From the NCBI GenBank assembly GCA_047967505.1, contig CM106538.1: 64,000 nucleotides of DNA; one strand, given 5' to 3'. The notes under the pieces were generated by a model, which searched no databases, was not told the origin of the DNA, and was given only the letters and a program-made list of their open reading frames with translations. Numbering within the stretch: position 1 is the first letter of the stretch; the number at the start of each line of letters is the position of its first letter. This document shows, piece by piece, positions 10,858 to 64,000 of this stretch. Made by a program: the position numbers and the translations under genes. The DNA is from Dipteris shenzhenensis (taxonomy: Eukaryota).

Positions 10858-10862
10858 TGGAT

Positions 10863-19104: not shown

Positions 19105-19134
19105 GTTCACTTGCGGGTGGACATTGAGGGGGGG

Positions 19135-19857
19135 TGTTAGACATCAATGCTCCACTCTCATGTAACTATGCGGGAACCAACTAACTCTACTTGTAAGTCC
19201 CCCATATGAGGAGAAGGCATTTAAGTAGCTCGGTTATCCGATAGGTCCTGGTTTGGACACCAGATGGGGGCCATGTGTGGCCTGAAGGGTGGACGGAGTT
19301 GGCAAACTACCAACTAGGCTACATGCAAGTGCGGGAAGGCATCCCATGATTGACCGCATTGAGGGTAGACGGAGCATTTCTCGAGGTAGCCCACTCTCGA
19401 GTTGCAGGGCCCGTTTGGAGTCCCAGATGATCCCGGATGGTTGTGGGCCGAACGGTAACCGTAGGTTACTTGCTCTACTTTGCGCACCGGTTCTATCGTG
19501 TGGTCGGTGCCCTATTTCAGGACCCGACCCCTAGTCGACCGTTTTGGGTAGACTGGGTCGGTCACCCAATTGGGCCCAATCGACTACGACTGGTGGCTAT
19601 ATAAGAGCAAGCCCGTGAAGCCCATTTTATCACTGGCTATAGCAACCCTGATTCCTTAGCATCCAGCCTCCGTCCTCTACTATTTCCAGCATGCCATCAA
19701 AGCTTCTCTCACAAGAGCGCACGGTTGGGAGGCAGCACCATTTATTGTATTAGTTCTACAGTAATCAAATTTTTGATTCTCCATACTATCTGGTTTTCTC
19801 TCTTGCGTATGAGATCCTGTTATTTGTTGAGCACAGATGTTGTATTGTTTTCTTACA
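19135..19857 (+). repeat. Third LTR of copia family A (3' LTR)
   Basis: TGTTAGACATCAATGCTCC...TTTTCTTACA, preceded by a G-rich PPT. Confidence 0.95.
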
Positions 19858-21005: not shown

Positions 21006-21543
21006 CTAAAATCCTCACTCTAATACCTGCGAAGTCAAAGAAACACACACCAAAATAGTAAGAGATTAACAAAAATGAACGAAACTGCAAACAAGCGAAT
21101 AAAAGGTGAAAGGAGCTTATTGTCTTGAAAGTTTAAGAGCATCACAACAACAATGATGAAACGAGGAATGCTTGTCAAAGAGAGAATGGAATGGCTCGCC
21201 ATGGTGAAAGTAGAGAAATTCTTGTTGAAGAGAGAATGACACCAGAGAACAAGAGAAAATGGATGATTGTTTTGGGTTACCACATGAGAAGGTTTCAAAA
21301 TGGAGCTTCGTTTTGATTTTGGGTCCACATCTCTTGGTACGACAAGCGAACCGTAAAAGAATAAAAAACAAATCTTGTCATTAATGCCACACGCTTGTAA
21401 CAACATAAAGTACTATTTTCTTTTTCATATTTTTAACTTTTTTTGTGGAATTTCTACGTTACATTGGCCTTCTCCTCATTGGTTGAGAAACCTTTTTCTA
21501 AAACCCTAAAAGGCCCCAAAATAAGCTCCCTTTTTTCCTAATG
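19858..21543. mobile_element. Truncated right-end copy of the CATTAGG-TIR transposon family (compare 43292-53093)
   Basis: Ends aaggccccaaaataagctcccttttttcctaatg at 21543, the same TIR as 53060-53093. The subterminal ~21400-21543 matches ~52950-53093. Carries a homolog of the 51279-52601 gene and is cut on the left by the copia LTR. Confidence 0.88.
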
Positions 21544-31488: not shown

Positions 31489-34400
31489 ATGGCTAGCAAC
31501 AAGGGAAAGAGAAAGGTTCAAGAGGTGTCAGTTTATGATGGAGTTAGTTCTAGAAGAGGATGGTTTTTGGATATATACAATAACGAACTCCAAAAACTCC
31601 ATAAAGTGCATTGTTTTGTGAACATCCAAGGAGCAACTTTTGAAGATGTTGGAAAAGTTAAAGAGATGGAGGATACCGAGAAAGACAACGTTCCTTTTCT
31701 CAAAATTCATACATTGGGAGGCAATGTGTATCAATTGGATCCTGCTTGTTTTGATCATGCGAGGATGAATGCTACTAGGGAGGACACGATGATATCTAGG
31801 GGTTGGATTAATGAGCAAGAAAATTATACCAATCAACAAATATTAGAAAGCTTTGATTTGGTAACAAAAGGGATAAAGCAAGATATAAAAAAGAGTAGAA
31901 AAGTTTCGAAAAGAACCAAGAAAAGTGATGGAGGGATCAAGCTCTCAAGTGTCTCAGAACACATTGCTCACACATTGAAAGAGAAGGCTAGAGAGACCAG
32001 TGAGGAGGAAACAACAGGTGAGAAGGAAATAAGGTCAGATGGAAAAACAAGCATTGGGGATAAACTAGAGGCTAAAGACAAAGAGACAACTTTAGGAGGA
32101 AAACAGGGAGGTACGGGAATAGTCACTGATGGAACTAGAAGTGGAGGTGATGCAATGGGGAGTGGTGAGACACATATAACAGGACATGGTGAGAAATCAT
32201 CCAATATAAGAAAATCCAGCCAGATGTTGACTTTAAGGCACTACAAAAGAAATTGGAAAGGAAGGACACAAGTATGATAGGCTTGATGGAGTACATAGAG
32301 TACTTCCCATTTGGTTTGGAGTTTGAGGTGTTGATCCCAGTGATGAATTGCTTTAGAGCACCAAGCCAATATGTGTACAGGACATTGACCCTTAGCTATG
32401 TCAGGGACTTGGTCAAGAGTTTTGCAATGAATGCATGACCTCCTGCAACATGTGCATATCTTATGCCTTACCACATAGGCACAAATACTCCGATGTCCAA
32501 GGAAGAGATAAAGGTGGAAAAGTTAAAGGAGTATAATTATTGGATTCTTGCAGGGCAGCATTCGATTTATGCTGCAAGGATATTTATAACTAAAGCACAT
32601 GGAGAAGCCTTCAATCAACGAAAAGGTTTCTATACATGGAGGAAGGCGAGAATTGTTGTCAATGCACCAGTTGAAGCAAGTTGTAAGATATCATCAATGG
32701 CCAACATGGAGGCACAGACCGTTTTGAAAACTCAACCATATATCGATATCTTACAACACCTAAGGGCACAGTGGATTGCATTCAGACGACCAAAGAAACT
32801 AGCCCAAGGCCTTGTCAAAGGGCATAAAGATTGACAAAGTTGGGATGTGAGTAATAAACTTTGTTTTGTATGCATTTTTTATTTCAAGAATGTTTATGGA
32901 TTTGTAAAAGAAATGATAGTAGTGCCAATTCCTTGATGTGAGAATGGCACTAGTGCCATTCTTCTAGTTACCAAGTCATGCTTTTGACATGGTAATGGGA
33001 GAATTGCACTAGTGTCATTATTATCTCTATTACAGGATTTGGATTAGAAGAATGTCTAAGATGATTTTGATTTTTTTATATAGAATTTTGCCAGAGTTGC
33101 AAGCGTATCGATGGGCATAAACTTTGCTACCAAGGACACACATGGTCACATACGATGATGACATCTACGAACAATGGATTAGGATTTTGACATTGGTGAA
33201 GCAGGGTGATCTTGAGGGTCGAAATCCCACAATAACATATATGAGGTGTCTGCTAGGATTGGAAGACGAAGATGTACGTGCACTTCAAGCAGAGATTGAG
33301 TCTAAAGAAATGGTCTTGGTCAAGTCAAGCAAAGACAAGGACTCCATTGAAATGTCTCAACGGGCAATGGAGATTAAGCATGATAGAGCCCTGAAAGAAG
33401 CACTCATCAAGGAGTTCAACTCACGTCACCCTTCGCCCCAACATCAAACATGGGATGCCCTTGCAACTTACTTCAAAATTGATTCAATTGTTTATCAGAG
33501 CTTCAAGGGTTCATGTGAGTCATGGGTCAAAGAGAAGCTGCAAGTTGGCAAGTCCACACCTGATTTCCCAAAAGCCGTGTCAATCTATGTTGATTGGGTG
33601 ATTAGTTCAATAGAGGGTAACAAGTCTACATCTCAGTCTTGTTTTCCTTGGACAATTATTCAAGTGAACATGGAGATGGAGGGGGAGAGCTTTCTAACAC
33701 GTCACTCCAAGGGACAACTTCCAATCAGCTTGTGTGTGCTTGACACCTCAAAGGGATCTGCCAAAGGCATGTGTTGGGATAAGGATGCCTTTAAGAAGTT
33801 GCTCTGTGGCTTGATGGAGACCGTTGCCACTCCGTCACAGTATGTATTGCTATCATTTATGACAATGATAGAGATGGTAAATCTCAAGGAAGCAATGATA
33901 GAGGCTCGATTTTGGCATAGAAGGTTTGTGGGTGTTATCCATGAATCGGATAGTGCACAAAAGGGTTTGTCTGAGACCTTTTGTTTTTTGTCATTTGTCA
34001 GCTCACATGATGGGTTTGATGGATTTGAGCACATGTTAGAAATCGCAAGGCCATACACAATAATTGAGGACAATATTCTTTATTCTGATGAGGGCGATGA
34101 GTATGAAAAAGAGGCGGTTGTGAAGCATGGCATCATCAAGGAGTGCATCAGGTGCTATTGTAGTAGGGAACATGAATTTGTTGTTGACGTCTTTACTAAT
34201 GGATGTGTGGCATTACAAGCATTGTCAAGCAAAAGAAAAGTGATCTCACTGGTGAAGACATCCCAACAGGCGACAGAGGTCGAGGCTATGTGTGTGGCAC
34301 ATGCATCAAATAATCCCCATATTAAGATTTGGTCTAGCATTGAGAGGCCTCTTGAGACACAAAGAGCTGATTCACCTATCGATGAAGGAATTAAAGAGGG

Positions 34401-37164
34401 TGAGCATCACATTGAAGACTTGCGACCTTTAACTGAAGCAGATCTTGAAGCTATCCCAAAGATTACATTGGAAGATTTGGAACAAGGTCTTTAGCTACTC
34501 ATTTATGCCTTGTGTATTCAGTTTCAAAATAATATGACTTTTATGGATTTTCTCGATTGCACATACTCTCATTATATTAAAGATATTAAACATTAGGTAT
34601 GATAAAATTGCGTGACATAATGACATGGGGAATGGTACTAGTGTCATTCTCCCTATGTCGGGTTATACATAAGAGGTACTATTAACATTTTATGCGACCT
34701 CATATGGAGAATGGCACTAGTGCCATTCTCTCTTTGTGGTTATGTAGAAATGGTAATACTGTTATGTTCCTTTCTTGAATCTATGTCAGTTGAAAGCATT
34801 ACAGAGATTAAAAATTGTATAGTATTAACTATGCTACCAAAGTTTTGATTTGGGTGCTTTCTACAAATCTGTTGGACCAAAGTAATACAGTATCTATGCT
34901 TTTAGATCATGCATTGTACATTTCTTTTGGGACATGGGGGGAGGCACTAGTAGTATTCTCTCCTCCCAATGAGGGTATAGAGAAAGGCACTAGTGGCATT
35001 CTCCATAACCTTATATGTAAAATGGCACTAGCACCACCTCAAGAGAAGAATAGCACTATTGCCATTCTCTCTATGAGTTCAGAGAGAAAGGTTGCACTAT
35101 TTGCATTCTCAATTGAACTTTAGAGATATTGGCACTTTTGCCATTCCCCAAAAATACAATGGAATCAGTGAACGACGATGGATAATTCTCATACTTTATT
35201 GTTATTTATTAGTTTCATATGCTTTTGTGCATCGACATTGTTGAATACACTCTAAAGAATCAAAATATTTCTATATTCCTCAACTTCCACAGGGACCAAT
35301 GATGCATGGAAGGATGTGGAGACATCAAATGTAGAGGACAACATACCACCCAAACTGGGGACTATCAATTACGCGATGGATACAGGAGGTATAGAAGAAA
35401 ACATAACCCCAAAAATGGAGAAAATTGCAAGGAATATCACGAATCCTATACTTTTAGAAGAGAACATGGATGAACGTACTGTCTCAACATTGGGGACAAA
35501 ACTAGATAATCTTATTGTTGTTGCAAACATGTATGAAATCATAGCACCTGCTGACAATTTGGATGAGTCAGAAGCCAGCAACTTCAAGGAGAATTTGGAT
35601 CTATATCCACATACAATTTCTTTGGATATGCCACGATTAACAATCATATTAGACTTGAATGGCCTGTTATTAAGTCGCTGCCTATTCAAGTCTCCAATAC
35701 ATCCGTCCATCATGCATGGCAAAAATATTTATATGGTTGTTCGTCCTGGGTGCATAGAATTTCTTAAAATCTTGCTACAAAGATTTAATGTAGGTATCTA
35801 GTCAACTGCGATGGAGCATAACGTACTTGATATGGTAGGAAAGCTGCAAAATTATGCAAATGAGAGCCTCCCTTTCTTTGTTATATGGTCTCAACAAGGA
35901 TGCTACACTTACAGTAAGACGAGGATAAATAGGCCTGACAAGGTTGGTGTTGAGGCAATGTTCAAACCCTTGGCAAAAATCTCAAAGGCATTTGGATGTG
36001 ATGCTAGAAGGACAATCCTTGTTGATGACTCCCCATACAAGGCTTGCATTAGCCCTCCATCAAATTGCATATTTCCTTCAACGTTTGATGTACAAGACAA
36101 GGATGATAATATTCTACTGAGAGAGTTGATGCCGTACTTACTACAACTCGATGAGACTAAAGATGTGCGCAGCATGATTGAGACAAATCGGTATGGACAA
36201 TTACCTATGATGGAGGGGCATAAGGATTTCAACCTTGTCCAGAAAGTAATTGATGAATGGAGGGAGGAAAATCATGCATGGTCAAGAATGGAATATAAAA
36301 CAAGAAATCTTCCTTTTGTAGATCAACTAAGAGAGAGGGATATAGGTGGTAGGGCAACCCATGGTGGTGATGGCCAGGTGCCTAAACTCAATGCATCCCA
36401 AATAAGACTTTTAAGGAATGCTCCACAACTCTCTAGCATGAATCTATGCAAGTTTCTCAATTGGCTATAGACCTAGGGTACAAAGGTCGCTATATCAAGA
36501 AATACATTGCTAAGGGCTACATAAACCGACTACAGAATGTGTATTTTTCATGAAGGTACATATGTCAAAGTGTTTTTTGATTTTATCTCGATATATATAA
36601 CTGTTGTTGTAGCTAATTGAATTTTTCTTTTGTGATGTAGATAGATATACGTTCAAATCAAGCTTGAGTAGGTACATACCAGAACGAGATCCATTTGGAC
36701 CACCAAAGTTACCTGTCCCTATCAACGAAGTGTTCTGGATAAAAAATGTGGCTTTCGAGGTGCATGAGTCAACCATTACAGGTGTGTTTGTGCATGGCTC
36801 CATCAAGAGATGGACTACTATTCTCCATTATGGAGGTGACAAGTACTCCTACAGAGACTGGAAGGAATTATGTAGAGTTCATCCAAGGCTAAAGAAGTAC
36901 TCTATCCAAGAGGACCCTACTGTCCCTATGAAGGATATGGTGCATATTGTTGGTGATGTTCAATATGGCAATGTGGCAGGATTTATTAACAGTAATAGAA
37001 ATACCAATGTAAAGCCAAATGTTTGTTATGTATTTTCCCCTGATGTTCCACCTTGGTATGACCCCATGATGAACATAGATATTGTAGAATATGGTCACAT
37101 TTGTATTGAATCCATAGATGATATACATGCAGGAGAGAAGCTATTTGCAGACTATGAGTTTTGA
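31489..37164 (+). pseudogene. Spliced multidomain gene: ParB/Srx-like + degenerate DNA-methyltransferase-like + FCP1/NIF HAD phosphatase + SET domain
   Basis: ParB-like: YRTLTLSYVRDLVKSF...YWILAGQHSIYAA...N. MTase-like: IIKECIRCYCSREHEFVVDVF..G...A....RKVI. FCP1: IILDLNGLL..VRPGCIEFL..KPL..TILVDDSPYK. SET: GNVAGFINS..KPN..DIHAGEKLFADY. A phase-1 GT-AG intron 34487-35292 joins the halves in frame; other introns at ~32847-33083 and ~36556-36640. Several stops and frameshifts. Confidence 0.72.
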
Positions 37165-39596: not shown

Positions 39597-41057
39597 AACT
39601 TTTTTTTTCCTAAATTACAAAACCATAACCCTAATTGTTTCCAAAAATTTAGGGGCAAGTGGCAGTGGCAGGATGTCGGGTTTAAAATCATAAAATTTGC
39701 TTGGGTTTCTATTCTAAACCCCAAACCCTATTTTTTATTCCCTACCAATTCAAGAAAAAGCAATGATTTTTGTTCCTAAAATGGAACCTAGAATTATACT
39801 GATGATTTTGGATCACATGATGAAGCTAGCAAAGCTACATACCTTTTCTACCTCATCGCAGAGTGTGCCAGCTACAGTGTCCAACTGGACTCCCTTTTGT
39901 GGTTGGTCTTGAACTTCATTTTAGCTTGAGGTGCTAGCTTCTTCATCTCTATCCCCGAACAATTCCCTCTTCAAATTCATGAACTACTCACATCAGACAT
40001 GTCGTACTCTGGTGTGGCATCTTCAATTGCCTTCTGTGTTAGTTGGATTGCCTCCAGATCGGTGAGGCTCGAGTCATCAAAGTGTGCAATCTCATCGATT
40101 GCTAGATTCACTAGAGCATCAAAGTCAATGACATCATCGAAAGTGTCAATTCGAGAGCCGACAGAGCACCTCGTCCTCTTGGAGACTGGTTTCTTCCATC
40201 ACTTCGGGTAAGGTGTTCCTCACCCTCAATCCTGATTGGATCAACCGAAGCAAGGTGTGGCTTGCTTGCTGCCTCATCTAGGTTATAGGTAGAGGATGGA
40301 TATGCACGAGTCAGATATGAAGATAAGATGACCTCGCTTTCAACTTACTCCTCAGCGAGGCTAATAGTATGCTCCTTAGGCTCTAAGTCTAGGTTTAGGT
40401 CATCTCCTCCACCACTTGTTGATGGACCTACTCCACCACTTGTGGATGCAGGACCCTTGGGTTGCTCGCCAATATCCTCATCAAGCTTGCTAGTCGCAAG
40501 GAGAATGGTAAGGGTTGCATCTCTCTCAATCAAATGAATTGGGGAAGATGAATCATCCCCAATGGTAATAGTGTACTCATGGAGAGAGATAGGGACATTA
40601 TCCATGGCCCTACCTAATCTCTTCTTGAAGTTAGCACTCTGGTCAAAATAGCTCAAAATATCCAATGAAACCCATTGGTGAGGGAGATAGCAATCGCGAC
40701 AGATTGCCCATGGATAAGTCTATCGAAAAATTGAAGAGAGGGATTATCAACAGGAAGAAGAGCACTCAAGTGTGACTCAAGATGGAATGCTTTGTAGAAG
40801 ATAGGATAAACCTGATCTGCAGAGGCATGGGAATCAATGGATGAAATCCACTAGTCAAAAGCCTCTCTAGGGGAAGCCATGAGTGTAGGAGGATGCTCGG
40901 GAAGATGAAAGAGGCCGGTTATGAAATGCAAGGTTACTCAAGACTGGAAAATTGAAAATGTGAAAATGACCTTAGAAGTGTACTTTATAAATGGATATTG
41001 CCCTTAAAAATGCTCTTAATTACAATATTTTTATATTTATTATTTTTTCTTTGGAAA

Positions 41058-41267
41058 GTCTCTCTCTCTCTCTCTCTCTCTCTCCCCTTAGCTATCTCCC
41101 TCTCCTCTCTCTCCCTTTCTCTTTGTCTCTCTCTTTGTCTCTCTCTCTCTCGTTGCCCTTAGCTATCTCCCTCTCTCTCTCTCTCTCTCATAGACCCACA
41201 AGGTCTTCTGAGGATGTTATTATATCTTTCTTTCTTTCCCTTCCTTTGTGTCCCTCATTGCTCTCTT

Positions 41268-41316
<49 letters not shown>

Positions 41317-41380
41317 CCCCTCCTCTCCCTTGCTCTCTCTCTGTCTCTCTATCTCTTTCCCTCCCCTTGTGTCCCTATTG

Positions 41381-41424
<44 letters not shown>

Positions 41425-41965
41425 CCTCACACCCGATGATCATCTTGTTGCCATGTTGCCCTTAGCTATCTATGTCATGGACATTGATTTTACATATACA
41501 CTTTTTGTATTTTGTTAGCGGCTCCACCCTTTGGATTAGTTGTACATGGGTTTTTTTTCAATCTCATAGTCTCTCAAAGACCTTAATTAACTTTCTTATT
41601 TTTCTCTTTCTCAACTTAGAGGTGCAAATGAATAAATGCAATCTTAACTCTCTCTCTTTTCCCATTCTCTACCTCTCTCTCTCTCTATCCCACTCTCCAT
41701 CTCTCTCTTTCTGTCCTCGTCTCCATTGTCATGGACATTGATTTCATGTATACAATTTTTGTATTTTGTTAGCGGATCCACCCTTTGGATCAGTTGTATC
41801 TGGGTTTTTCTTCAATCTCGTACTCTCAAAGACCTTAATTAACTTTCATATTTTTCTCTTTCTCAACTTAGAGGTTCAAATGAATAAATGCAATCTTAAC
41901 TCTCTCTGTCTCCCTTTGTATCCCTCCCCCTCCCTTTGTCTCTTTCTCCCTTTGTGTCCCTGACT

Positions 41966-41997
<32 letters not shown>

Positions 41998-42057
41998 GTC
42001 ATACATCTAACTTTGTCTCATGGCCAGGTGCATTATTTGTGTCGCTTATTGTACTCT

Positions 42058-42118
<61 letters not shown>
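41058..42118. repeat. (CT)n microsatellite cluster with a ~255-bp-period internal duplication
   Basis: Long ctctct runs. tgtcatggacattgattt...ctcaaagaccttaattaacttt...gaataaatgcaatcttaactctctct occurs at ~41473 and ~41727. Confidence 0.9.
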
Positions 42119-42121
<3 letters not shown>

Positions 42122-43196
42122 TGCTCTAATTGCTATCTATCTCGAGATCACACACTCTCTATCTTGCACAATATAGATATACAAATACCCACACAAATTT
42201 AAAATTACAAATATTTATCGCTTTATCATTCATAGACCATAGAGAGCCATCCATCTAGAGGTCAATACTTAATTTTAAAAATATTAATAATAAATGAAAC
42301 AACACTTTGTATTATATATGATTTCTATTCATACATGTAGCAATGCCTTATTACCAAGTGCATTGATGAAGCACTAAGGATCCAAGAAACTAGATATCAT
42401 ATGAAATACCTGCCATCATGTCTCTACTATCTCTAGAGTATGGGGAGGGCAACAATTCTTACAAAGGATACTTGTCTCATCCTTATATCTAACTTTGTGA
42501 TTATCAAGTCTAAAATAATAGTCTTGGGGAGGGCTTGCTATTGCCAACTACAATTCTTCCCTGATAAATCACATGGTCCACTTATCTTCCAATTCCAACA
42601 TTAGATCAGGATGTCCTTGCCGCAATAAATTGATACCTCGACAATAGGACTGTGAGTCCCATCACGCATATCATCATCCATTGCTTCCCATTGAAGGTTC
42701 TTCCATCTAAACCTTCTATATGTGAAAGTCATGCAGAGATTTGCCTTCCAATGCAATGCCTGCAAAATTTGGGATCTATCAATACATAGTATCCTTATCA
42801 TTTTTTATACAAACAAGAATTGTAAGATTTGCTCACTGAAATGTCACATCTGAAGTGTTCAATCGACATTGTGCTAAATCTTCAGCATGACATGTTCTTG
42901 TTGTCCATCCATTGTCAAATGGCTTAGATAGCCAGTCCATTTCTAAGCTCTTCCAAGTGTAAGTAATCTTTGTTTTCCTTAATTGCCTACAACTTTTTTA
43001 TTGTAAACCACCAATGATGTTTTTTGGGGTATTTTGAAAAAAAAACTGAAATTTTCCCTAGATTTGGGGAGCTTCTATTATAAAGAAGTCCACATGGCAT
43101 AATCTCCTTCATGGATACCATATTCCCTTACCCAAGCCTCTAATATTTTAGTAATTCTCCAAAGGGCCCCTTTTTTAGTCCAAATTTTTTGTAATG

Positions 43197-43291: not shown

Positions 43292-43692
43292 CATTAGGGA
43301 AAAAGGGAACTCATTTTGGGGCCTTGTAAGAGATTCACTATTTTTTGATTTATTTCTCTCCTAAAAGACCTCAAAATAAGTAAAATACGAAAACGTGGCT
43401 CAGAACTATCAGTAAGGACTACAGAATTGTCAATTCAAAAAGGAATAAGATAATCTTTTGTCTGAATAACACGATTTTGCATTAAATATCTCCTTAGATT
43501 TTTTTTTGTTTACCAAAGATTCCGCATCTCTTTTGCCAACGTGTGCAGGCCTTTCATAAAGAATCCATCACTGAACTTGGTGATTGCAAGTTTTCAAAAT
43601 ATTCACATGGATACCACCACAGTTTCACGATTCATGTTACAAAACGACTATGAGATTGAAAAACAAACTTCGCAACCTCAGAAGCACAAAAA

Positions 43693-46427
43693 ATGGCCGA
43701 TACTAGTGAGTCACTATCTCAGAAGAAGCGATTACACCATCTTCACATCGACTTAGAAGAACAATATGCTCCAGCACAAAAAAGACGAAAGGATACGGTG
43801 CTGAATGCTCAACAGCGGGAAAATATGAGAAGAGAAGGGCTTCAACATATTGACTTATGGTGCGATGGAAGCATATATCCAAAATGTCAAGTAAAAAACT
43901 CTACACCTCCATTTGTCAATCCCACCACATTACTGAGGTTTGCCGGCAATGGACAAAATAGACTTCTTGGTTATATTTCAGCGCACTCTGCATTTGCGAA
44001 AACGTATAAAATGATGTACCTATAAGAAAAGGGGGCCAAGATGCAGGAGATAGCCATTCATGCAAAATTGGAGCAGCAGTTGCAGAATGAAATTGAGGAG
44101 CATTCAAAGAGTAAAAAAGAGTTGACAAGAGCAAGAAAGAAGAGAACCATGCTTGGAGACAGACTACGTAGCAGGAAGATTAAAAACATTGCAAATTTGA
44201 AGGCTGGGACTGGTGGATGCAAGCAACTAATTCAGGAAGCAAGGTTAGATTGAAATTTATCATTTTGTATACTCAAAAAGGCTCTCAAATGACAATATCT
44301 ATTTCATCGATTATCGCAAAACAAGAATGGAGGTGCTAAATGATATAGGCATATTGTGTTGTTACTACAGGAAATTATTGGAGCCTGCAAAAGAAAATAT
44401 GGACCCAAACCTTCTTCTTGTTAAACAAATGAAAGGATTGCTTTCTTGCGGTGTAGCAAAAGGTTTGATTGAGGAAAAAAAATACAAAACAGTCAAACGC
44501 AATGTTGTAGAGGAATTTGTATCCAATAATCAAGTTGATGGCACTATAATCCAAGAGGCTCTTGATGTTAGTGTAGTCAGCAGGAAGGGATATAGTTCGA
44601 ATTTCCATGCGATATCCTCAACTTTGAAAGATCAAAGGATTAAACGAGTTTTACTACCAAATCCAGCAACCATGTGGAGGATAAGAGGTCATTTGAATGA
44701 AAGTATAGATGAATTTATTGGGCAATATATCCATATTAAAGAAATATTTCATGGTGGTAAAGGAACCACTATGTATGATCCTTGGAATAATATATTTGTA
44801 GATCTACAACAACTTCAAAGAAGAATGGTCGAGCTTTATGGAATAACATTTGAGAAGTGCAAAGGCATTTTGAAATTTGTTATCAAACTGGATGAGTGTG
44901 AGGTTGTAAAGGAAAAGAAAATGGAAAGAGTTGCTATTACATTGATGAATGGAGCAATTGATACATCATTGACTGAAGCGAGTTTGAAGTATTTTAGTGT
45001 GCAGTCAGAGAAACACATATGGTGGTTAGGCTCGTTCCAGGTATGATCATTTTTTGTTTTATACTTGATTTTGGTCATTGTTTTCAAATCTGTTATAGTA
45101 AGACTTTTGTTTTCTATAATCTGGTAGGTGAAGATAGAAGACCATGAAACACTAGATTGGGTGTTTCACCACACAAAAATACCAAGAATAATCAAAAGAC
45201 AAGTGCAAGGCGAGAATCTCCATGTTGCAAGAAAAGGTGATTTTCAAGTAGAGTGGCACATGGCCGGGGATCTTAAAACACTTAAGTGCATGTATAACAT
45301 TAGTAAAGGAGGAAACTCAAAGTCTCCTTGTCTTTACTACAAAGAATCAACTCAAGTAATGGATTCAAAATGGTGGAAGAGAGCACCTAATAGAGATAAA
45401 TTTGACCCTGACTTCAAGGCCATTCTAGACATTCCACTATGTAATGTTCACATCTACACATTGCATGGTCTATGTCAAATTATTGAGAAATTGGTATTTT
45501 TATATATTGGATTTGCTTGGAAACTCCGTCCCAAAAATAATAGAAAGGATGCTCTTCAAGCATTGGAAAAAGTGTTATCCGATATAGGTCTGCATGGAGG
45601 AGATGTTGAAATCACAAAGGATTTTAAAAAGTCTATCAATGGCAAGGAGGTACCAATCAAGCCCTCTATTGGTGGTGTTAAGGCAAGAAGATTCTTGTCT
45701 CGACCCAAACACAGTAAGCAAGTAAGGCAAGGTAGAACAATTTTAAAGATTAATTATGGATTGTGGAAGCAAGTCCATAATGCTGTGAAAGATCATGAGG
45801 CAGATGGGGAAGCACGAAATAGGAAGGTAGAGGTGTGGAGGTCTCTTGATCAACTCTTCATGTTCTGTGACAAAGTAACATGGACAAAGAGTGATTACAA
45901 GAACTTTGAGGAGGCAATTAAACATTTTGGGAAGTCAATGAAAGACGCATGAACAGCCTGCAATATAACTCACTACATGGTAAGGTTCTGTCTTTTTCTT
46001 TTACTTAAGTGTGATCCTCTTTTTTTTATTACTTACTATGCATTCTTATGTCTTACAGCATATCATCTACAACCACCTTCCCTATTTTATCAAAAAGTAT
46101 GGATGCCCAGCAATTTGGTCTATCCAAGGCATGGAGAAGTCTCACTACATGGCACGTAATGCATTTTTCAGACACACACAACACTATGGAGGGAGTCAGA
46201 AGGCAAATAGTCTGAAGGAAGTCTTCCAATGGTTTTACCGAGGCATACTACAGAGGCTGCATGCTAAAAGAAAAGTTGCTAGCTCCAAAATCAAGCTTGC
46301 TTTTCTTCTAGCCCAAAAGCAAAGACGAAGACAAACTCTAGACAATTCAATGGCAGCAGAGAGACGTAGACAATGGAGGGAATCGAAGATATTTAGAAAC
46401 CATAAATGGACAAGTAAACATGAATAG
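43693..46427 (+). pseudogene. RAG1/Transib/Chapaev-like DDE transposase, intron-containing, disrupted
   Basis: FVIKLDE (D1); HMAGDLKTL (D2); SPCLYY (eroded CxxC); IYTLHGL; spliced ITHYM|HIIYNHLPYFIKKYGCPAIWSIQGMEKSH (HxxxxH and catalytic E). Introns at 45041-45127 and 45980-46058; in-frame TGA at 45950-45952. Confidence 0.8.
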
Positions 46428-46749
46428 GACTCATTTGTAACTTATTGGTGTTATGTCCACATGTTTTCAAACTCAATCAATAGAATTTTTTTTTGTGGAA
46501 CAACTGACTCTTGGTGTTATGCATCAAAAGTATTTCTTTTGTGAAACATATGATCTAAACGTAATACAATTTGTTCACAATTTCAATATATTGTTTGTTT
46601 AATATTTAACGACACCACTCTATCTAAATGTACAAATCATTTCATCTTCAACTTATTGTTCATTTATACAAGATCATACCAGATCAATGACTTTGTACAA
46701 ATCAGTTCAACTTTAATATAATGTTTGTGCTATATTTGATGACTAAATC

Positions 46750-47700
46750 CTATTTCTCCCAGGGCCTGCCGATCGGAACTCTCTTTTTGATCTTGATTGG
46801 AGTCTTTTTCTTCTTTATTGGCTTGATGTCGACTGTTTGTTTATCAATGCTTGCCTCTGTTGCTTGTCTGGGAGGGGTATCCTTTTCTTTAGCTGTCTCC
46901 ATCTGTTCTTCTTCTTGGATTGTGTGGCCTGATGCAATCATGGGTGGCTCTCGAAACGTTATGAGCTTGTGTTTTCCCTAGCCCTCCAGACATTTGGGCT
47001 CCTTAACACCACATGCTAATGCATACAAAAAAGTAAGCAGCCCTAGAGGCCTGCTTATCCACATAATCTCCAAATATATCTATGGCAGACAACCTCTCTA
47101 TCAAAATGATCTTTTCCTTTTGCCATGAAAGATCATGTCCACCTAAAGCCCAGGACAAACATTTTAAGAAGTAAACAATGGCTTCTCCATTGTTGCTCAA
47201 CTGCCTATGGTAAATCAAGATCTTAGCACTACCTAGATCATGAATATAATGAGCTAGGCCTGACATTTTGCGAAACCCAACCGGCCTGCTTCCACTTGAT
47301 CTCTGGAGGAATGTGTCATCCTCAATTTGTAGCTGCCACATATCAAAAGATTGGAGTGAGACAATACACAACCTACAAAACAAAGTTAAGCAGAAGACAA
47401 AGTATTTGATTTGAAGTACCTTCTCATTTTCATCAGCAACAAGCAGTTCATCTTTCCAAAGATTTATTCCTCTCCCCTCTTGTCCAGCCTCTTCTTTAGG
47501 CTTTTCTGTGTATAGTGCTGAGAGATTTATAGCTTCCTGTGTGAGCTGGAAGGCAGCTTCATATGGCTCTTGGAACTTTTCAGCCTCTTTGAAACAAAAA
47601 GTAAGGGCCTCTGTAGGATCAAAAATTGTTTCCAAAGCTAGTAGGATGGAAGAAATATATGTCAAAAAACATTGAAAACAATCTAGAATTCTGACCTTTT
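46750..47700 (-). pseudogene. Unknown cargo gene of the TIR element, convergent with the transposase
   Basis: ORFs 47003-47665 and 46750-46941 with probable short introns and a Lys-rich C-terminus. No domain recognised. Confidence 0.45.
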
Positions 47701-48944
47701 TTTTCCTTTTCCATGCTGTTGGAGTTGCACTGGTGAATCTCCTACTCTTTCACTAACTTTAACTCTGCACTCTAGGTAACCTGAAGATCTGGCAGTGGTA
47801 GTAGTCTTCAGGCAGGTTGCAGTCTGGATGGAGTGTGCTGGGTAGGAAAGGATCAGAGAGAGAAGGAAATGGAAGATGCGAGGGTCGTGGCAGGGATGAA
47901 AGATTGGGAGGTAGGGGAGGGAAGAGTGGTTGTGGAATTGATTACAAAATCATGAATGGCACAAGTTCCAAGGCATAAAGTGTACCTTTCACATGTGCCA
48001 AATTTCAAACTCCAAGAGATCTGGGTCCCATCCACACGTGTGAAAAACGACTACATTCCACATGTGTGGGATTGCCTTATTTGTATTTTGCACTTATTTG
48101 TGGTATCCTGTTTCAGCCCTCTTGCCCTCCAGTCTCTGCTCTCTTGCCTCCCTACCTCCATACTCTGCAACATCAGCATCCTGACCAGTAGCACAGGGTA
48201 CTCATCAGCAGCACAGCACATCCACAGATAGATTTCAGGTCAGTAACAATGGGTTCTTCCCTCAGTCTCTGCAATCTTCTTGCCTACCATAGAAACAATC
48301 CATCCTGCATGGAAATGCATAGAATCATTCCATATTTTATTTAGTTGTCAAGACAGAGAAATCACTGTAGGAATGCAGATCTTCAAGTGTGATATTTGCA
48401 TGTGAGGGTAAAACTATACTTATGGGTTCTTCCTTCAGTCTATGCACACTTCTTGCCTTCCATAGACTCAATCCATCCTGCATGGACATGCAAACACCTT
48501 CAAATGACTGAAGGCATATTCCAGCATGCTGCCTCATGAATTTGCAGAAAAACGCGAGGAGAAGGCCTTAGGAATTTCAAACAGCTGAAATCGCGTTTTG
48601 TTGCAAATATTGAAATGTTGCTTCATCCACCCCTGTCATTCTGGTTTTGTGACTTCCATAGCTATCCATGGCTCTACTCTTCTTGCATAAACTCCATTCA
48701 TACTGTATTTAGTTGTAAAGATAGGGAAATCACTATAGGAATGCACCATGGTGCATGTCATTTCAGGAATTTGTAGGAAAACGCGATTTGGACCTGTTAG
48801 GAATTTCAAACTCCTCGTATCGCGTTTTATTGCAAATTTTTCTATGTTGCTTCATCCACCCCTGTGATTGCCTTTTTTTTGTCAAAACATGTTCTCCATG
48901 TCTGTAATCTCTTTCCATTGCTTTGTATGCAGTGTGTTAGAGTG

Positions 48945-51078
48945 ATGGCAAGAACCAAGTCAACTACAAGGAAAGCTGGCAAAGGGCCAAGGCTTGCAGC
49001 AACAGCAGCTGGGGTAGGTACCAAGAAATTTAGTGTGCCTCCAAAGGGAAGAGCTGCACATGGCAGGAAGGGTAAGCCAATGAGCCTGCTCAAGCAAAAG
49101 GCAAGAGATTGAATCATGGTGCAGGTGTGCTAAGGGAGATCAGGAAGCAACAGAAAGCTATAGGCTTTGCAATCCCCAAGGCACCTTTAAGTTGGCACCT
49201 TGGGTTCAGGTGGAACAGAACTGCCATTCTTTCCTTACAGGAAATGGCAGAGGATTACTTGAAAAAATATTTTGAAGATGCAATGCTGGTAGCAGCCCAT
49301 GCTCACAAGGTGACTTTGATGGCCAAAGACTTCAACACTTTGTCCAGAGTGAGATGGAGGTATGACAAGCTTGTTCATCCTGTGGAATGGCAGAACATAA
49401 AGATGAGAGACATATTGTTAATTCCACCTACAAGGAAGTTAAAAGTAGATAAGGTTAAGGTTGTTGAAGTAACCCACTCAAAGAACATCAGAGGGAAGAC
49501 TGCTTATGAGGAGTCACTGAAGCAGCAAATAAAAGAAACAAAATTTGTTATAGATGTGGAGACTGGAAAGAGGGAGCTACAGATACATAGAAGGTTGTAG
49601 GAGCTGGGCCCTAATATAGTTGTCCATATTGAGGATGAATTTTTAGTGAATGATTTTGACTTAACAAAACCATGCTTGGCAACATTGGCTCATAAGAATG
49701 AGTATTGCTCAGATACTATCATTCTTGCAATGCTCTAGTAAGTGTCTATTATTTTACATTTTTTGCAAAAACAATCCTCCTTGTACCTCCTTTATACCCT
49801 ACCCTAATTATTTTTTGGTCCTATGCAGCATGATGAGAAGCTGGATTCACCCCTCTGTACAGCATACAGTCCATATTATTGATCTTGCCATTTCTTCTAA
49901 ATTAAGAGATGCAAAGGAAACTCCCATCAGTATTTCCAACTGGTTCAGACACTGCAATTTTGAAGTAATTGATGTTTTGCTACTTCCATACCATAACAGG
50001 TATGTGGGTGACTACTTCTTTTAAAATTCTTCTTTAAGATTGAGAACTCTTGTAGCCTTTGATTTCCTAATGCTTTTTCTCTTATGCAGTGACCACTGGA
50101 GTTTTGTTTCTATTGACATCCAGCAGAAGCAATGCTTTATATTCAACTCTCTTAAAAACACACACAAAGAGTTGAAATTGTAAGTGCTGTGTGTGCTTTT
50201 TGAACTTAAAACTTCATTATTTTGATATCATACTAACTAAATTATACATATTGCAGTTATATTAGAAGGCTTTTAGATGCATTGGATCACTATCCTCCCA
50301 ATGTCTCTCTTTTGGATTTCAATAGAGCCAATAAATCTAGAGGTAAAAAGTCGTTCCCTCTACTGATGTCTATTTCATGCTATGTCTTTGAACTTATTGA
50401 ATAATTTTGTTTTGTTTAGATGTTAACAATTTCTAACATATCTTTCCAACTATACAGACACCACAACAAGATGATTCAAGTAGTTGCGGATGGAGAGTGT
50501 TGATCAGTGCCAAATATCTACTTTCAAGCTATTTTGAGAAAGAACAGCCAGACCTTGTAAGAAAAACTAATTTTCATTTAGCTTGAAGATAATTCATAAT
50601 GATACAAAGTGTTCTAAATTATCATATGCCATTGCAGATGAAAGAAGATAGCTTCAGCTCAAACTATGTATATAATTTTAGAGCTCATACAATTTGCAGG
50701 TTTTTGAGCTATGCCTCCCCAAACTTATTGTACCAGCTACTGTGGAGTTGGGTGAGAGCTCTAAAGTATAAGAAGGTGTCATACACCTTGATGCCACAGA
50801 TGAAGCACCTAGTGCTGAGGAGGAGAAGCCACAGGAGCAAGCACCTAGTGCTGAGGAGGAGAAGCCACAGGAGCAAGGACCTGCTGCTGATGTTGTTGAG
50901 GAGAAGATGGAGCAGCAACAAACAGATGCTCCTTGGGCAGTGGAGGAGACAATGGAGTAGCACCAACATACTGTACAGGATAGGATGGAGCCAGCAGAAA
51001 AAAGATTCTCCAAAAAATGATGATAGGGAGATCTTGGACCATGTAGAGCAACCTCTGGATCAAGCTGTACATAAGTAG
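48945..51078 (+). pseudogene. Histone H3-like domain fused to a Ulp1-type (peptidase C48) SUMO-protease domain and an acidic tail
   Basis: MARTKSTTRKAG..., then after a frameshift GAGVLREIRKQQK...FRWNRTAILSLQEMAEDYLKKYFEDAMLVAAHAHKVTLMAKDF. Downstream spliced exons read LLLPYHN|SDHWSFVSIDIQQKQCFIFNSL and TPQQDDSSSCGWRV, ending in an E-rich tail. Confidence 0.85.
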
Positions 51079-51278
51079 AAAATGGATGTCAGAAATATGT
51101 TCTACATGTTTAACTAAACACTTATGTACAAAATCTTACTTGATTGAATACAAAACCTTTGTTTATGGAGTCTGTGTTATCTCAATTTTCAAAATTTCAA
51201 TGTCTTTGCATTTTATTGAGCTCTCTCTTCTTTTGAGCAACTGCAAAAAAGCAATATGAATCAGAGCGATAAAGTAAA

Positions 51279-52601
51279 CTAATAGCAATGCTTAATGAGA
51301 CTAGGATAAATTAGATGGTGTACCTTTTTGTTGTTGTAGATAAATAAAAAGTCGTTTGAAATAGAACCTTCTGTCTCAAACAGAATGTCATTGTGCAATT
51401 GAGCTAGGGAGCAACATTCTCTTAATGAGATCTTGACTAGCACATCACCATTCTCAACAACATCAATATCAAGAAGTTTATTTTCTGCACCAAAAGAATC
51501 TTCATCTTGATCCATTGGGACTAGTTTTGTGCCTAGCATTCGACTGCACTTGTAATAAAAAGAGAAAATAAAATTTTGTGATGCAACCATGTACTTCAGT
51601 TGCATAGAAGGTTGGACAACCTCACAAAACACTGAACTACATGTCTTCTTATCCCAACCTTTATCCAAAAATTATGGCATGCATGCCGAACTTGTTGCTT
51701 TAACTGTGAACATTGTTTTTGAAACCTTCACTGGAAAGGATTAAATAAGTCCACAAAGACTGTGAGAGGCATGCATAAAGAAATTTTTATTATCCTTGTG
51801 GCAATATTGGGCCTCAGAGCTTTTTGTACTTCTTTGAAAAGCTTGGCCCTATATGCCTCTGTAACACTAGAATGTGGGTGAGGCCAATCCACTGAATTCC
51901 ATGTCGGAAGGTCTTGTTTTATTAACACACCATGTGTGTTAGCATTGTCCAGCAACTGATAAAAATGATCAGTAAAAAATATACCCGATTGAGCTAGCTC
52001 TGTTGCACATCGACCTTGGTATTGTTGTTCTCCTATCAATCCATGCAGAACATCTATAAATCCCAGAATACAATCGATGTTTTGCCATGTCTCATACGAT
52101 GAAGGATATAAATCTGAAATAAAACAACACAAGAATGTCAATAAGCAAAGAGAGAAAGCTTCATCTTAAAAATCCATACACCTCGTAAAGAAAAAAAACA
52201 CAATAGAAAAATATACAATTAGGCCTGTGTTGCGGAGGATCTTTTGGATAGTCTTGCAAGACAACTTCTTTATGCATGTACACGTGCTGAATCAAAACTT
52301 CTTTCACGGATATCTTCCCTCTGGTGATTTTAAAATCTCGTACTCTTCCCTTCCATGATGCCAAGAAAATGTTTTTTGTCTGGGGTCTTTTTCTTTTGCT
52401 AGGTTGCATGAGCACCCATGCTCCTTTCGAAACACTAAACCTTTCCCAAGTTCCTTCCGTTTTGACTGTACTTGAATTCTCTACCAATGAAATAGAAGAA
52501 GCAGGTCGACGGGGTAAGGATGTGTGGTATAATTCTGCCTTCATAGCATTATCATCCACAGAGCGTCTTCCACAAGAACGGCCATGGTTTTTATTCACCA
52601 T
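51279..52601 (-). pseudogene. BAH-domain-like cargo gene
   Basis: FSVSKGAWVLMQ...WKGRVRDF...VLIQHVYMHKEV...(intron)..LYPSSYETWQNIDCILGFIDVL...IFFTDHFY follows the BAH pattern. A paralog lies at 19858-21005. Confidence 0.55.
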
Positions 52602-53093
52602 GGAGATTTTCTGAATCTGTAACAATAGCAAAGTAATGTAAATAAGATAACAAATTGAAGTTTCAAGAAAGAGAAAGTGGGCAGACAGACAGTTGACAAG
52701 AAATATCTTACTCTACGCCAAACAAGATCAAGGGAGTAGTTTTGGAAAAGAAGATGTTGCTGCACAATGAGGCAGTGGTGTAGAATGGTAGACCTTTCAA
52801 AGGAAAGGCGGCACAACATTTCAAAGTTCAAAGGAAGGTGGAAGCAGGAAGGCCCTTGTCAGATAAAATGTCAGTTTAGATTCTATCTTCTTGTCCAAAG
52901 ATCTTGTGAGAATAAAAAACCAATCTCCACATTAATGTAGCACGCTTGTACCTACATAAAGTATTGTTTCTTTTTTCTATTTTCTCTTATTTTCGTGAAT
53001 TTCCAACGTTACGTTGGCCCTCTATTGATTGGTTGAGAGCTTATTTTTCCAAACTGTAAAAGGCCCCAAAATGAGCTCCCTTTTTTCCTAATG

Positions 53094-54285
53094 ATAGCTC
53101 TCTCCCACGACTATGGAGAGATGATGAAGACCTAAGGATGACCTCTATTATGCCTCAAGGGAAAGGATGGAGCAAAGTAATAGACATAGAGTTGCTTAAT
53201 AATATCAACCTCTATTGCATGCTTAATAGTGATGTAATGAAAAGATGGGTGACCAGATACGAGGATGCAAAGGCAAGAAGACAAGGAAAAAGGGCCCTCT
53301 TTTGTACACACCACGGATCTCGTGTACCTACCCTCAACATCTAAGAGCACTTCCAAAGGATATTCACGTGGATTGGCTACTTGATGAAATGGAGAGAGCA
53401 GATAGAGACGAGGGGATGCATGTCACAATGGAAGAATGGGAGTACACTAGAGGATGCATGAGCAAGGTCGGTATATAGAATGTTATGCATAAGTTAGGAG
53501 CTTTCAACAATTTAGATTGCTTAATTAATTGATTTTATCTTGGTGTTGTATATTATGTTCAATGCTATATGGTGTAAGGTCGGTATATAGAATGTTATGC
53601 ATAAGTTAGGAGCTTTCAACAATTTAGATTGCTTAATTAATTGATTTTATCTTGGTATAGTGTATTATGTTCAATGCTATATGGTGTGAGGGCAAGCATT
53701 TTCGGATACAACGGATTGATGATAAGAGAAACGCACAAGATTACGGCATCATTGCTAGCTTTAAGTGAGCCAATGGGGCCATGGATGATTATTGTGGCAT
53801 AATCCAGATATTATTAAGCTTGACTTTCGACGCTTCTTTGTGTATGTTTTGGATGTCAAGTGGCTTAAGGACGTGGTGGAAAGAGGCCCTAATGCAACAA
53901 TCAAACGCCATGCAAGTGGCTTTGTAACTATTGACTCCACAAAGTTTTGGCAAAGCAAGAAGGGCACACTAGTACTACTGCAACAATGTGAACAGGTACT
54001 TTACACACATATAAAAATACTCACTTTTAAATATTTGATACCTTCGATGCAAGGAAAATAACATGATTGTATTTGTGTTTGAATTAGGTTGTCTATCAAC
54101 CAATGGAGGAAATAATAGGTGGTAGCATGTCATACCTATTACCCCAGGTTCTAAAGTGATGTATAATATATTTACTAATATGGAGCGTATGGAGAATGAT
54201 CATGTCCATGGAGCTGATGATGACCGTGATACAAGAGAGGAGGATGATCATGAGATAGGAGATACAGATATTGAGGCATTTTGCA
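53094..54285 (+). pseudogene. CACTA/EnSpm transposase C-terminal part (DUF4216-like), right of the insertion
   Basis: DSSLPRLWRDDEDLRM...; AIWCEGKHFRIQRIDDKRNAQDYG...DYCGIIQDIIKLDFRRFFVYVLDVKW...SGFVTID...LVLLQQCEQV. Includes a 112-bp tandem duplication, 53464-53575 / 53576-53687. Confidence 0.85.
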
Positions 54286-62680: not shown

Positions 62681-64000
62681 CACAACAACACAAAGTAGCT
62701 ATAGACGCGCTTGGTAGATGCGCAAAATAGCGAGCGCGTCTATAGGCGTTGCTTTAGTAGAGGAATTACGGGCGCATCTAAAAGCACGTCTAACAACTCG
62801 TCTATTTGCGCATATATTAACACGTTTACTTGCGCATCTAAATTGAGAAAATACGGGCCCGTCTAGCATCGCGTTTATCAGTGCATCTATTTGTGCATGT
62901 ATTAGCGCGTTTATTTGCGCGTTTACACTGAGAATTAGATGCACATTTAGACGCATAGATAGATGCAAACCAGAGAATACAAAAAGTGAGATTTTGGTGT
63001 ACATCATTGCTTTCCAAACATTGCCCATGATTACCAAAGCACATAATATTTTGCAAGCCCACATATACAAGAATTAAGTGAGATGAGGAGAATGAGACAA
63101 TATGTAAAATAGTTTTGCCAATATCAATTATGGGGCTACGGTTCAATCTCATCCTCAATGAGATCAACCCTTGCCAAACTATCTACTTCAAAATCCAAAC
63201 AAGTGTTTAGATCTACAAATACATTCAACCCACTACTAGTGCCACTCATGTGCTCATCGAAATCAGCATCTCGAATGGTAGGCTCGTCCTCACAGGTAAT
63301 GGCATCAATATCTGTATCTCCTATCTCATGATCCTCCTCCTCTCTCGTATCACGGTCATCATCACGTCCATGGCCATGATCATCCTCCATATGCTCCATA
63401 TTAGTAAATGTACTATACATCACTTTGGAACGTGGCATGATAGGTATGACATGCCACCATCTATTATTATCCACCATTGGTTGATAGACAACCTAATTCA
63501 AACACAAATACAATCATGTTATTTTTCTTGCATCAAATATTTAAAAGCGAGTATTTTTATATGTGTGCACAGTACCTGTTCACATTGTTGCGGTAGTACT
63601 AGTGTGTCCTTCCTACTTTGCCAAAACTTTGTGGAGTCAATAGTTACAAAGCCACTTGCATAGCATTTGATTCTTCCGTTAGGGCCTCTTTCCACGTCCA
63701 CGTCCTTAAACCACTTTACATCCAAAACATACACAAAGAAGCGTCGAAAGTCAAGCATAATAATATCTTGGATTATGCCACAATAATCATCCATGGCTCC
63801 ATTGGCTCCCTCAAAGCTAGCAATGACACCGCAATCTTGTGTGTTTCTCTTATCATCAATCCGTTGTGTTCGAAAACGCTTGCCCTCACACCACATAGCA
63901 TTGAACATAGTGCACTACACCAAGAAAAAATCAATTAAATAAGCAATCTAAATTATTGAAAGCTCCTAACTTATGCATAAAATTCTATATACCGACCTTG
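62681..64000 (-). mobile_element. 3' end of a CACTA/EnSpm element, same family as 53094-54285, opposite orientation, running off the window
   Basis: Terminus-like CACAACAACAC at 62681 (one change from CACTACAA). Subterminal tagacgcgc/gcgcatcta repeats at 62700-62960. Transposase C-terminus at 63136-63908 (DDKRNTQDCG..DYCGIIQDI..DVKWF..LVLPQQCEQV). Confidence 0.82.

Follow-up and report, generated by a model that had tools for sequence, protein, structure and literature searches.

The window considered here is a stretch of 64,000 nucleotides from contig CM106538.1 of the Dipteris shenzhenensis assembly GCA_047967505.1, and its plus strand carries, inside a DNA transposon with terminal inverted repeats (TIRs), a gene in which an H3-type histone runs on into a protease domain of the Ulp1/C48 kind. 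The H3-type and C48-like signal at 48945–50560 is far above chance expectation. Intact members of the family consist of one spliced gene encoding an H3-type histone, a post-fold motif, a charged linker and a Ulp1/SENP-like clan-CE protease. An initial annotation of the window had described a histone H3 mimic fused to a SUMO-protease domain; a single H3–Ulp1 frame within a transposon holds at the level of the family, whereas the window copy itself is a pseudogene and the position of the catalytic Asp is occupied by Asn.

The H3–protease gene in the window

The copy is laid out as listed below, where P numbers denote related proteins, L numbers denote loci from a scan of metagenome contigs, and ORF stands for open reading frame.

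43292–53093, plus strand: whole DNA transposon copy, 9,802 bp, containing the H3–protease gene; 37-nt TIRs and sharp similarity boundaries
48945–49737, plus strand: exon 1, with H3-like tail, fold, post-fold motif, linker and protease start; frameshift, deletion and stop in this copy; donor GTAAGT at 49738
49085–49339, plus strand: histone-fold match, Pfam PF00125, residues 4–88 of ORF 49076–49597 (E = 2.6e-14)
49101–49103, plus strand: site of the 1-nt frameshift between tail frame and fold frame, from frame comparison and P0001
49188–49189, plus strand: junction of the 27-nt deletion in helix alpha-1, from the alignment gap and contig loose ends
49598–49600, plus strand: in-frame TAG; Gln in P0005, P0008 and P0014, end of P0004 and P0006
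49829–49999, plus strand: exon 2, protease domain; GT–AG boundaries and tblastx matches to L001, L002 and L003
50090–50179, plus strand: exon 3, with His 50094–50096 (DHW) and Asn 50145–50147 (FNSL); Pfam Peptidase_C48 and tblastx matches to L001, L002, L004 and L006
50257–50342, plus strand: exon 4, read from sequence; phase misfit with exon 5
50458–50556, plus strand: exon 5, with oxyanion Gln 50467–50469 and catalytic Cys 50485–50487 (PQQDDSSSCGW); from sequence, ORFs and tblastx
50638–50960, plus strand: last exon(s), end of the protease domain and acidic repeat tail; ORFs 50593–51078 and 50772–50960 compared with the C-termini of P0036, L001 and L006

The frame that opens at ATG 48945, MARTKSTTRKAG (also given as MARTKSTTRKAGKGPRLAA), begins with an H3 tail in which K4 and K9 are kept and Ala replaces Ser at position 10, as the initial annotation had read it; position 11 is Gly. 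The histone fold it described is recognized by Pfam Histone in the ORF at 49076–49597 (54 bits; cut-off 26.4), and its estimate of about 10 residues deleted from helix 1 comes to 9 when the copy is compared with relatives. The stop, the GT–AG introns and the C48 motifs that it placed downstream (DHW, FNSL and PQQxxxxSCG) can all be read in the sequence, with DHW, FNSL and PQQDDSSSCGW encoded in GT..AG-flanked exons 3′ of the histone part. The DHW exon by itself matches Pfam Peptidase_C48 (E = 2.2e-4, 21.6 bits; cut-off 20.7).

The damage to this copy goes further than had been listed: the helix 1 deletion and the TAG are present, and three additional breaks of frame or phase had been missed. 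The tail frame ends at TGA 49110–49112 and the fold is read in a different frame (from 49076), which implies a 1-nt deletion near 49101–49103; the relative P0001 reads MSLLQQKAKRLKYGAG in a single frame across this site. Exon 4 (end 50342) and exon 5 (start 50458) have incompatible phases in the window copy; the two form one exon in L001 and L006, and L002 has an intron there. A further frame change lies in the C-terminal region, near 50720–50775. The deletion in helix alpha-1 appears as a gap of nine columns against P0001, P0002, P0003, P0010 and P0013, and the absent 27 nt are seen, in other copies, as loose ends behind 49188 in seven and nine DNA contigs of two runs (X1 and X2, respectively). 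With a frameshift, a deletion, a stop and the later breaks, the window copy is decayed, a pseudogene.

Architecture and constraint across the family

A stop retained by other copies had been put forward as a sign of two separate genes. The close relatives (14 proteins at 58–88% identity from 43 candidates of a word-seeded search, all short-contig sequences) give a divided answer, as five of the 14 reach the position of the stop: P0005, P0008 and P0014 have Gln there and run on into the first protease exon, and P0004 and P0006 end at the same residue as the window. The end is ...RRL in P0004, P0006 and the window, and the corresponding residues are ...RKL in P0005 and P0008. Since P0004 and P0006 end where the window stops, a sub-lineage carrying the stop is indicated, and it seems from these sequences to have several copies. 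The TAG differs from the Gln codon CAG by one C-to-T change at a CHG site, probably of the kind to which methylated transposons are prone. Among 328 candidates from a search with the window ORF there was no longer protein, which is weak evidence.

More distant relatives carry the fusion in one frame. When 1.84 billion representatives were searched with a profile, 37 matched at E = 1e-30 or better, many of them proteins of 200–290 aa that have a MARTKQTAR start, the H3 fold, a conserved post-fold motif (R-x-R-Y-D-K-L-L ... K-M-R-D-I-L-x-I-P-P-x-R-K) and a charged linker. These proteins end at D-I-x-x-L ... E-L-x-D-x-I-I-x-A-x-L-R, where the C48 domain begins and exon 1 closes. Of the 25 family members reaching 130 residues or more beyond the fold, 21 carry this protease-start motif in the same open frame according to a regular expression; among the remaining four, one stops short of the motif and the others show it on inspection, each with a single substitution. 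Pfam Histone scores in relatives range from 47.7 to 102 bits (E = 1e-18 to 1e-29).

All named family members are 'hypothetical protein' entries from the fern Adiantum nelumboides, and two of these contain both domains. P0048 (403 aa) matches Pfam Histone at E = 2.6e-23 and Peptidase_C48 at 25.6 bits (cut-off 20.7), the latter over profile positions 2–182 of 217, and P0169 (503 aa) has Histone and Peptidase_C48 among its precomputed database domains. The metagenome contig scan, made with a narrower alignment (A3), yielded 30 loci, of which L001–L006 and L025 are family members. Exhaustive GT–AG models of L001 and L006 gave stop-free ORFs of 681 and 732 aa, with the His/Cys motifs at residues 337/402 and 345/414, respectively. 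End-to-end alignment of the two models with P0048 (residues 1–403) gave E = 2e-54 and 2e-48 at ∼30% identity; aligned with one another, they gave E = 3e-67. Judged by these protein models, the full architecture is kept in three lineages diverged to ∼30% identity, and the single H3–Ulp1 ORF whose verification had been proposed is present at family level, as continuous ORFs and as fused gene models in deeply diverged relatives.

The common ...RRL end of the window, P0004 and P0006 is what would be seen if an H3-like gene ended at the 49598 stop and an independent Ulp1-like gene followed. For the family, such a pair of genes is contradicted by the three copies that read through, by one open exon across the junction in the 21 of 25 wider relatives and by the intact fused models in L001, L006 and Adiantum; moreover, no start codon or promoter-like gap separates the two parts, and the TAG is a single C-to-T step from a Gln codon. 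We consider two genes extremely improbable.

Selection was assessed on exon 1 of five loci in 10 pairwise comparisons. The proportion of synonymous differences (pS) is saturated, at 0.79–0.94 over the 10 pairs, and because the synonymous rate (dS) is thus saturated in every pair, no ratio of nonsynonymous to synonymous rates (dN/dS) is obtainable. By region, the mean proportion of nonsynonymous differences (pN) rises from 0.31 (fold) and 0.33 (post-fold region) to 0.48 (tail) and 0.52 (linker), mean pS being 0.78–0.89 throughout. Within exon 1, constraint is strongest on the H3 fold. Neutral evolution of the H3 part, named at the outset as a finding that would undo the proposal, is not what these values describe, as pN is lowest in the fold and synonymous sites are saturated. 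A quick maximum-likelihood tree built on 133 columns from 73 rows sets 33 transposable element (TE)-type rows, including four fragments whose profile matches extend beyond the fold, apart from 40 ordinary H3 rows with a Shimodaira–Hasegawa-like approximate likelihood ratio (SH-aLRT) of 100. The phylogenetic comparison with H3 that had been suggested therefore places the TE-borne H3-like sequences in a clade of their own, in a tree whose rows do not include fern CENH3. Some sequence features would also suit an origin from CENH3, on which the tree says no more than that the clade is separate.

The separate clade of the H3-like sequences and the constraint on their fold show that the H3 part was not simply captured and left to evolve neutrally. 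A transduplicate of this kind, in which an Ulp1-carrying transposon picked up a piece of a host H3 gene, describes the window copy well enough, given its frameshift, deletion, stop and phase breaks, and gene capture is common in plant transposons according to passages of a review (PMC13317346). For the family it is contradicted by full open frames in lineages at only ∼30% identity, by a fold that changes least while synonymous sites are saturated, and by the position of all TE-type H3 sequences in one clade; it could be true only of the window copy, and we assign it a very low probability. We hold the fusion architecture and its maintenance by selection with high confidence.

The histone module resembles cellular H3 along its whole length. 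Residues 1–129 of P0048 are colinear with residues 1–129 of solved H3 chains (E about 1e-26 to 1e-22), from the ARTK tail through helix alpha-3. Positions that vary little or not at all across the family include the R-V-T Arg and Thr (helix 3), the Phe and Arg residues within F-Q-R-L-V-R (helix 1) and the acidic residues of helix 2; the H4-contact and DNA-contact positions are retained in the family alignment. The chain does not end after helix alpha-3; a C-terminal extension of ∼300–500 residues follows. A model of P0015 residues 56–182 in complex with H4 scored 0.82, as compared with 0.03 for the best of three controls, although H3–H4 is a solved pair, so that the pass may come from likeness and the score reports likeness, not binding. 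Of 78 solved complexes, 51 attained the 0.82 mark, as did 2 of 108 mismatched pairs; contact agreement between the model runs was ≥90% and the predicted local distance difference test (pLDDT) of the partner was ≥72.

In the protease module, the window, Adiantum, L001, L002 and L006 all retain the His-Trp, Gln and Cys-Gly-Trp positions (HW and Q-x5-C-G-W), and L004 shows the His exon only. The His, Gln and Cys occur in the order and at the spacing usual for C48 enzymes.

The carrier transposon and its surroundings

The element that carries the gene has the following further features.

43292–43328, plus strand: left TIR, 37-nt inverted repeat
43660–46424, plus strand: transposase gene, four ORF pieces (43660–44022, 44249–45043, 45128–45949 and 45984–46424)
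48249–48869, no strand assigned: imperfect direct repeats just 5′ of the H3–protease ATG; self-BLAST pairs at 79–89% identity
51282–52712, minus strand: convergent third gene, three ORF pieces, homologous to an intact 292-aa ORF of L001 (3655–4533, minus strand) and to the partial copy at 19915–20861
53057–53093, minus strand: right TIR; terminus shared with the partial copy, which ends at 21543

The two TIRs match at 34 of 37 bases and start with CATTAGG. A second, partial copy of the element lies at 19915–21543 and is 66–78% identical; the similarity between the two ends sharply at 21543 and 53093. At ≥85% identity, a 3.2-kb stretch is matched by 3312 (X1) and 3117 (X2) DNA contig pieces, those of X1 dividing into 371 at ≥99%, 1025 at 95–99%, 1467 at 90–95% and 449 below 90%. 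Matching pieces in the thousands indicate that the family is highly repeated.

In Adiantum, H3 or Ulp1 parts are attached to this N-terminal transposase motif in three gene models (P0045, P0170 and P0171), so that the two genes are neighbours there too. Counting P0162 and P0173 with these three, H3 or Ulp1 parts are found fused to transposase or retroelement (gag, protease, reverse transcriptase) parts; such chimeras are probably deleted or nested copies merged by gene prediction. The annotation of the Adiantum proteins as ordinary hypothetical proteins would suit a domesticated, single-copy host gene for an H3 variant with a protease, close to transposons only by chance. The position of the gene between TIRs contradicts this for the family, as do the thousands of contig pieces at 85–100% identity in two DNA runs, the many diverged copies per assembly and the several gene models chimeric with transposase or retroelement parts; a host gene is accordingly very improbable.

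The superfamily of the transposon was sought through its transposase and its termini. The transposase ORFs match no Pfam family at E up to 0.1 (the MULE and RAG1 families included), and phmmer searches of the Protein Data Bank (PDB) with three of the ORF pieces returned chance-level matches only. Language-model features of the transposase lie near RAG1/Transib-like clusters (0.91–0.97), a lead only, with a recognition value of 1887 against a mark of 2300. Its motifs include K-L-D-E-C-E, followed by A-G-D-L-K ... P-C-x-x. No target-site duplication is visible at the flanks (...TGCAG on the left and ATAGC... on the right), and one may have been lost because the element copy is old. Transib/RAG1-like elements have TIRs starting CAC... 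and a 5-bp target duplication, a type of terminus that the CATTAGG start, with no duplication visible, does not match. CACTA/En-Spm elements have CACTA termini and a Transposase_21/24 domain; here the termini are CATTA... and there is no Pfam match.

The convergent gene has no Pfam match and no usable Atlas match. An RNA read joint from 51064 to 51157 has CT..AC ends, which makes it a GT–AG intron on the minus strand, probably one belonging to this gene; RNA read depth in the region is highest at 50875–51400. In L001, an ORF for a NIF/FCP1-like phosphatase (2808–3371, plus strand; Pfam NIF, E = 1.6e-17) lies directly 3′ of the H3–protease gene, and the longest GT–AG model of that locus splices it in frame with the H3–protease to give 869 aa. 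The join may be coincidental, as the model search favoured the longest ORFs.

About 480 bp past the end of the partial element copy begins a second, far more diverged Ulp1-like fragment (22026–22383, plus strand), with tblastx identities of 31–41% to exons 2 and 3 and matches to L002, L003, L004 and L006; no H3 part is detectable with it. On the other side, the partial copy is adjoined by a copia-type insertion. Nested copia-type long terminal repeat (LTR) retrotransposons with gag, integrase and RVT_2 (E = 1.8e-64) occupy 5532–19823, and three related LTR-like blocks lie near 5.5–6.2, 10.1–10.8 and 19.1–19.8 kb.

Elsewhere in the window, NIF-like phosphatase ORFs (E = 1.6e-5 and 9e-9) adjoin a SET-domain ORF (E = 4.1e-6) at 35256–37161 on the plus strand, and a 457-aa ORF of no known family lies nearby at 33121–34491. 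Membership of the SET and NIF ORFs in the same element was rejected, as they lie outside the TIRs and show no tblastx similarity to the L001 NIF ORF at E = 1e-4; they may belong to another mobile element with chromatin-related genes. An array of interleaved direct repeats covers ∼4.3 kb at 26820–31086, in units of 66–300 nt with 6–11 copies each, and includes a 40-nt motif containing CACATGTG; a 21-nt stretch of this motif recurs inverted at 47955–47975 at chance level (85.7% identity, E = 8.3). Long inverted repeats at 53463–54277 and 63302–64000, 9–10 kb apart and with arms of ∼800 nt in several blocks that are 90–96% complementary, are probably the ends of another element reaching the window edge. 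A CT-rich microsatellite with many (CT)n runs (41030–42145) lies just upstream of the left end of the H3–protease element.

A possible role at chromatin

We favour the explanation that the H3–protease fusion is an accessory gene of a TIR transposon and serves chromatin-addressed counter-silencing, a reading that as a whole we judge slightly better than even. Through H4 pairing and with the help of histone chaperones or of nucleosome assembly, the histone module would bring the protease to chromatin, where SUMO or another ubiquitin-like (Ubl) modifier would be stripped from the silencing machinery by the protease. The loss of the modifier would help the element to stay active, as VANC and KIU proteins do for VANDAL elements. 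The anti-silencing mechanism taken by itself is put forward tentatively, at somewhat less than even confidence. Its most specific form, in which a fern DNA transposon family encodes a core H3 that enters nucleosomes with a covalently attached His-Asn-Cys Ubl protease acting as an eraser of SUMO-type silencing marks, is rather unlikely.

Several observations weigh against this proposal. The chromatin-addressing role of the protease is deduced from sequence, and two of the five close copies (P0004 and P0006) share the end point of the window copy. Raw reads of two RNA runs contributed 88 and 97 reads at ≥85% identity, none of them at ≥99%, and no read joint was listed in these runs at any predicted H3–protease intron; splicing of the gene is neither confirmed nor refuted by the RNA reads. 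The start MARTKxTxR occurs in 19 of 26 sequences with a complete N-terminal region, and among these 19, position 9 is Lys in only 12 (Arg in three, Val in three and Trp in one) and position 10 is Ser in only two, so that mimicry of the K9/S10 region is not conserved. In the aligned sequences, tail residues 1–8 are thus conserved and the K9/S10 context is not.

The protease module raises further objections. In all six lineages an Asn is found 17 residues after the His, where cellular enzymes have the triad Asp (FIFNSL, YLANSG, LLMNSI, FLINSL, YFVNSL and VFMNSL). The HMMER alignment with SENP8 sets the Asp opposite the adjacent Ser, with a one-residue gap, and a gapless alignment sets it opposite the Asn; either way there is no acidic residue. 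By contrast, the His-Asp-Cys triad is described as conserved in plant ULP1-like proteases in a part of a review (PMC11371177). Among solved structures, the protease part from Adiantum comes closest to the NEDD8 protease SENP8, with a weak match (E = 1.1e-4), followed by SENP2 (1.3e-3) and then SENP1 and Ulp1 (0.031). For the KIU proteases of TEs, an earlier study (PMC6117577) considered action on SUMO unlikely and placed them further from ULPs than the deneddylase DEN1. SUMO as the substrate is an assumption here, given the Asn in 6/6 lineages and SENP8 as the best solved match. An AlphaFold2 model of the protease part (P0168, 10-row alignment) was unusable, with a mean pLDDT of 41.6 and a predicted template modelling score (pTM) of 0.25. 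His-Asn-Cys is the active centre of papain-type enzymes, and by analogy the arrangement in this family may still be an active centre.

Two other uses of the fusion have to be weighed against nucleosomal delivery. A soluble H3 mimic could act as a decoy that never enters nucleosomes and that binds the readers, writers and chaperones of H3, bringing them to the protease or titrating them. The first eight residues are indeed the best-kept part of the tail, and an extension of ∼300–500 residues starts after helix alpha-3, where H3 normally ends. On the other hand, the fold is more constrained than the tail (pN 0.31 vs 0.48), and features that a pure tail mimic would not need are present, as H4- and DNA-contact positions are retained and the model with H4 scores well, if perhaps through likeness; we regard a decoy as improbable, with a minor share of our confidence. 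Alternatively, the fusion could be a self-processing precursor in which the protease cuts the chain and frees a transposon-encoded H3 variant that marks the chromatin of the element. Some viral clan-CE proteases process polyproteins, and the linker of this family is long and poorly conserved (pN 0.52); against this, the linker contains no conserved cleavage motif of the Gly-Gly type in the alignments examined (A2 and ex1), and we think self-processing quite improbable. Delivery of the protease to chromatin remains the reading that we prefer.

The nearest known counterpart is KIU/Kaonashi, of VANDAL-type MULEs carrying VANC-Ulp1, which shares with this family an Ulp1/C48-like accessory domain fused to a chromatin-addressing module. 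KIU-carrying VANDALs induce hypomethylation of related elements (PMC13317346, in passages of the review), and intact C48 domains were counted in at least 97 Arabidopsis MULEs (PMC6117577, likewise in sections of the study). In contrast to KIU, the partner here is a complete H3-type histone and not VANC, no ORF of the element matches Pfam MULE or another transposase family, and the named relatives come from a fern. With cellular H3 (H3.1/H3.3 and CENH3) the family shares the colinear residues 1–129, the ARTKQTAR start, helix alpha-N and the fold, and its model pairs with H4, which may reflect likeness; it differs in its separate clade, in the protease continuation after helix alpha-3, in a region past position 9 that is not conserved, in having Trp for Phe after the conserved loop 1 Arg, and in the HAHR of helix 3. 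With Ulp1/SENP/DEN1 enzymes (MEROPS C48, clan CE) it shares a Peptidase_C48 match above cut-off and the order and spacing of His, Gln and Cys, whereas the triad Asp is replaced by Asn in 6/6 lineages and the weakly closest enzyme is SENP8 (E = 1e-4) and not a SUMO-specific SENP. Virus-encoded histones, such as those of giant viruses, are also histone-fold proteins of a selfish element, packaging histones that in some cases are fused together; here, by contrast, the gene belongs to a transposon, has introns and is fused to a protease.

Mobile elements with chromatin-protein modules (Chromo, PHD, SET, SNF2; SETMAR) have been described (10.1101/2021.11.30.470311), and the available part of that study names readers, SET and remodellers and no core histone. 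Neither 'Ulp1' nor 'Peptidase_C48' occurs in its main text, and its supplementary tables may hold relevant rows. Peptidase_C48 is a recurrent accessory domain in the main text of a 2025 survey of active plant TIR transposons (PMC12973397), where the word 'histone' is absent and the supplementary tables may again hold relevant rows; 'histone' is likewise absent from the 2026 review of gene capture by plant transposons (PMC13317346). Our literature searches found no description of an H3–Ulp1 fusion or of transposon-encoded histones.

Ulp1-like proteases of transposons are thus already known, and their fusion to H3 was not found described. A fusion kept open and constrained down to ∼30% protein identity points to chromatin as the address of the protease and offers a model of transposon counter-silencing that is open to direct test, and the invariant Asn at the triad position poses a defined biochemical question on clan-CE proteases. 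If the proposal is true, the family would supply the first core histone encoded by a transposon, anti-silencing would have a new route, and transposons would join viruses as selfish elements that encode histones.

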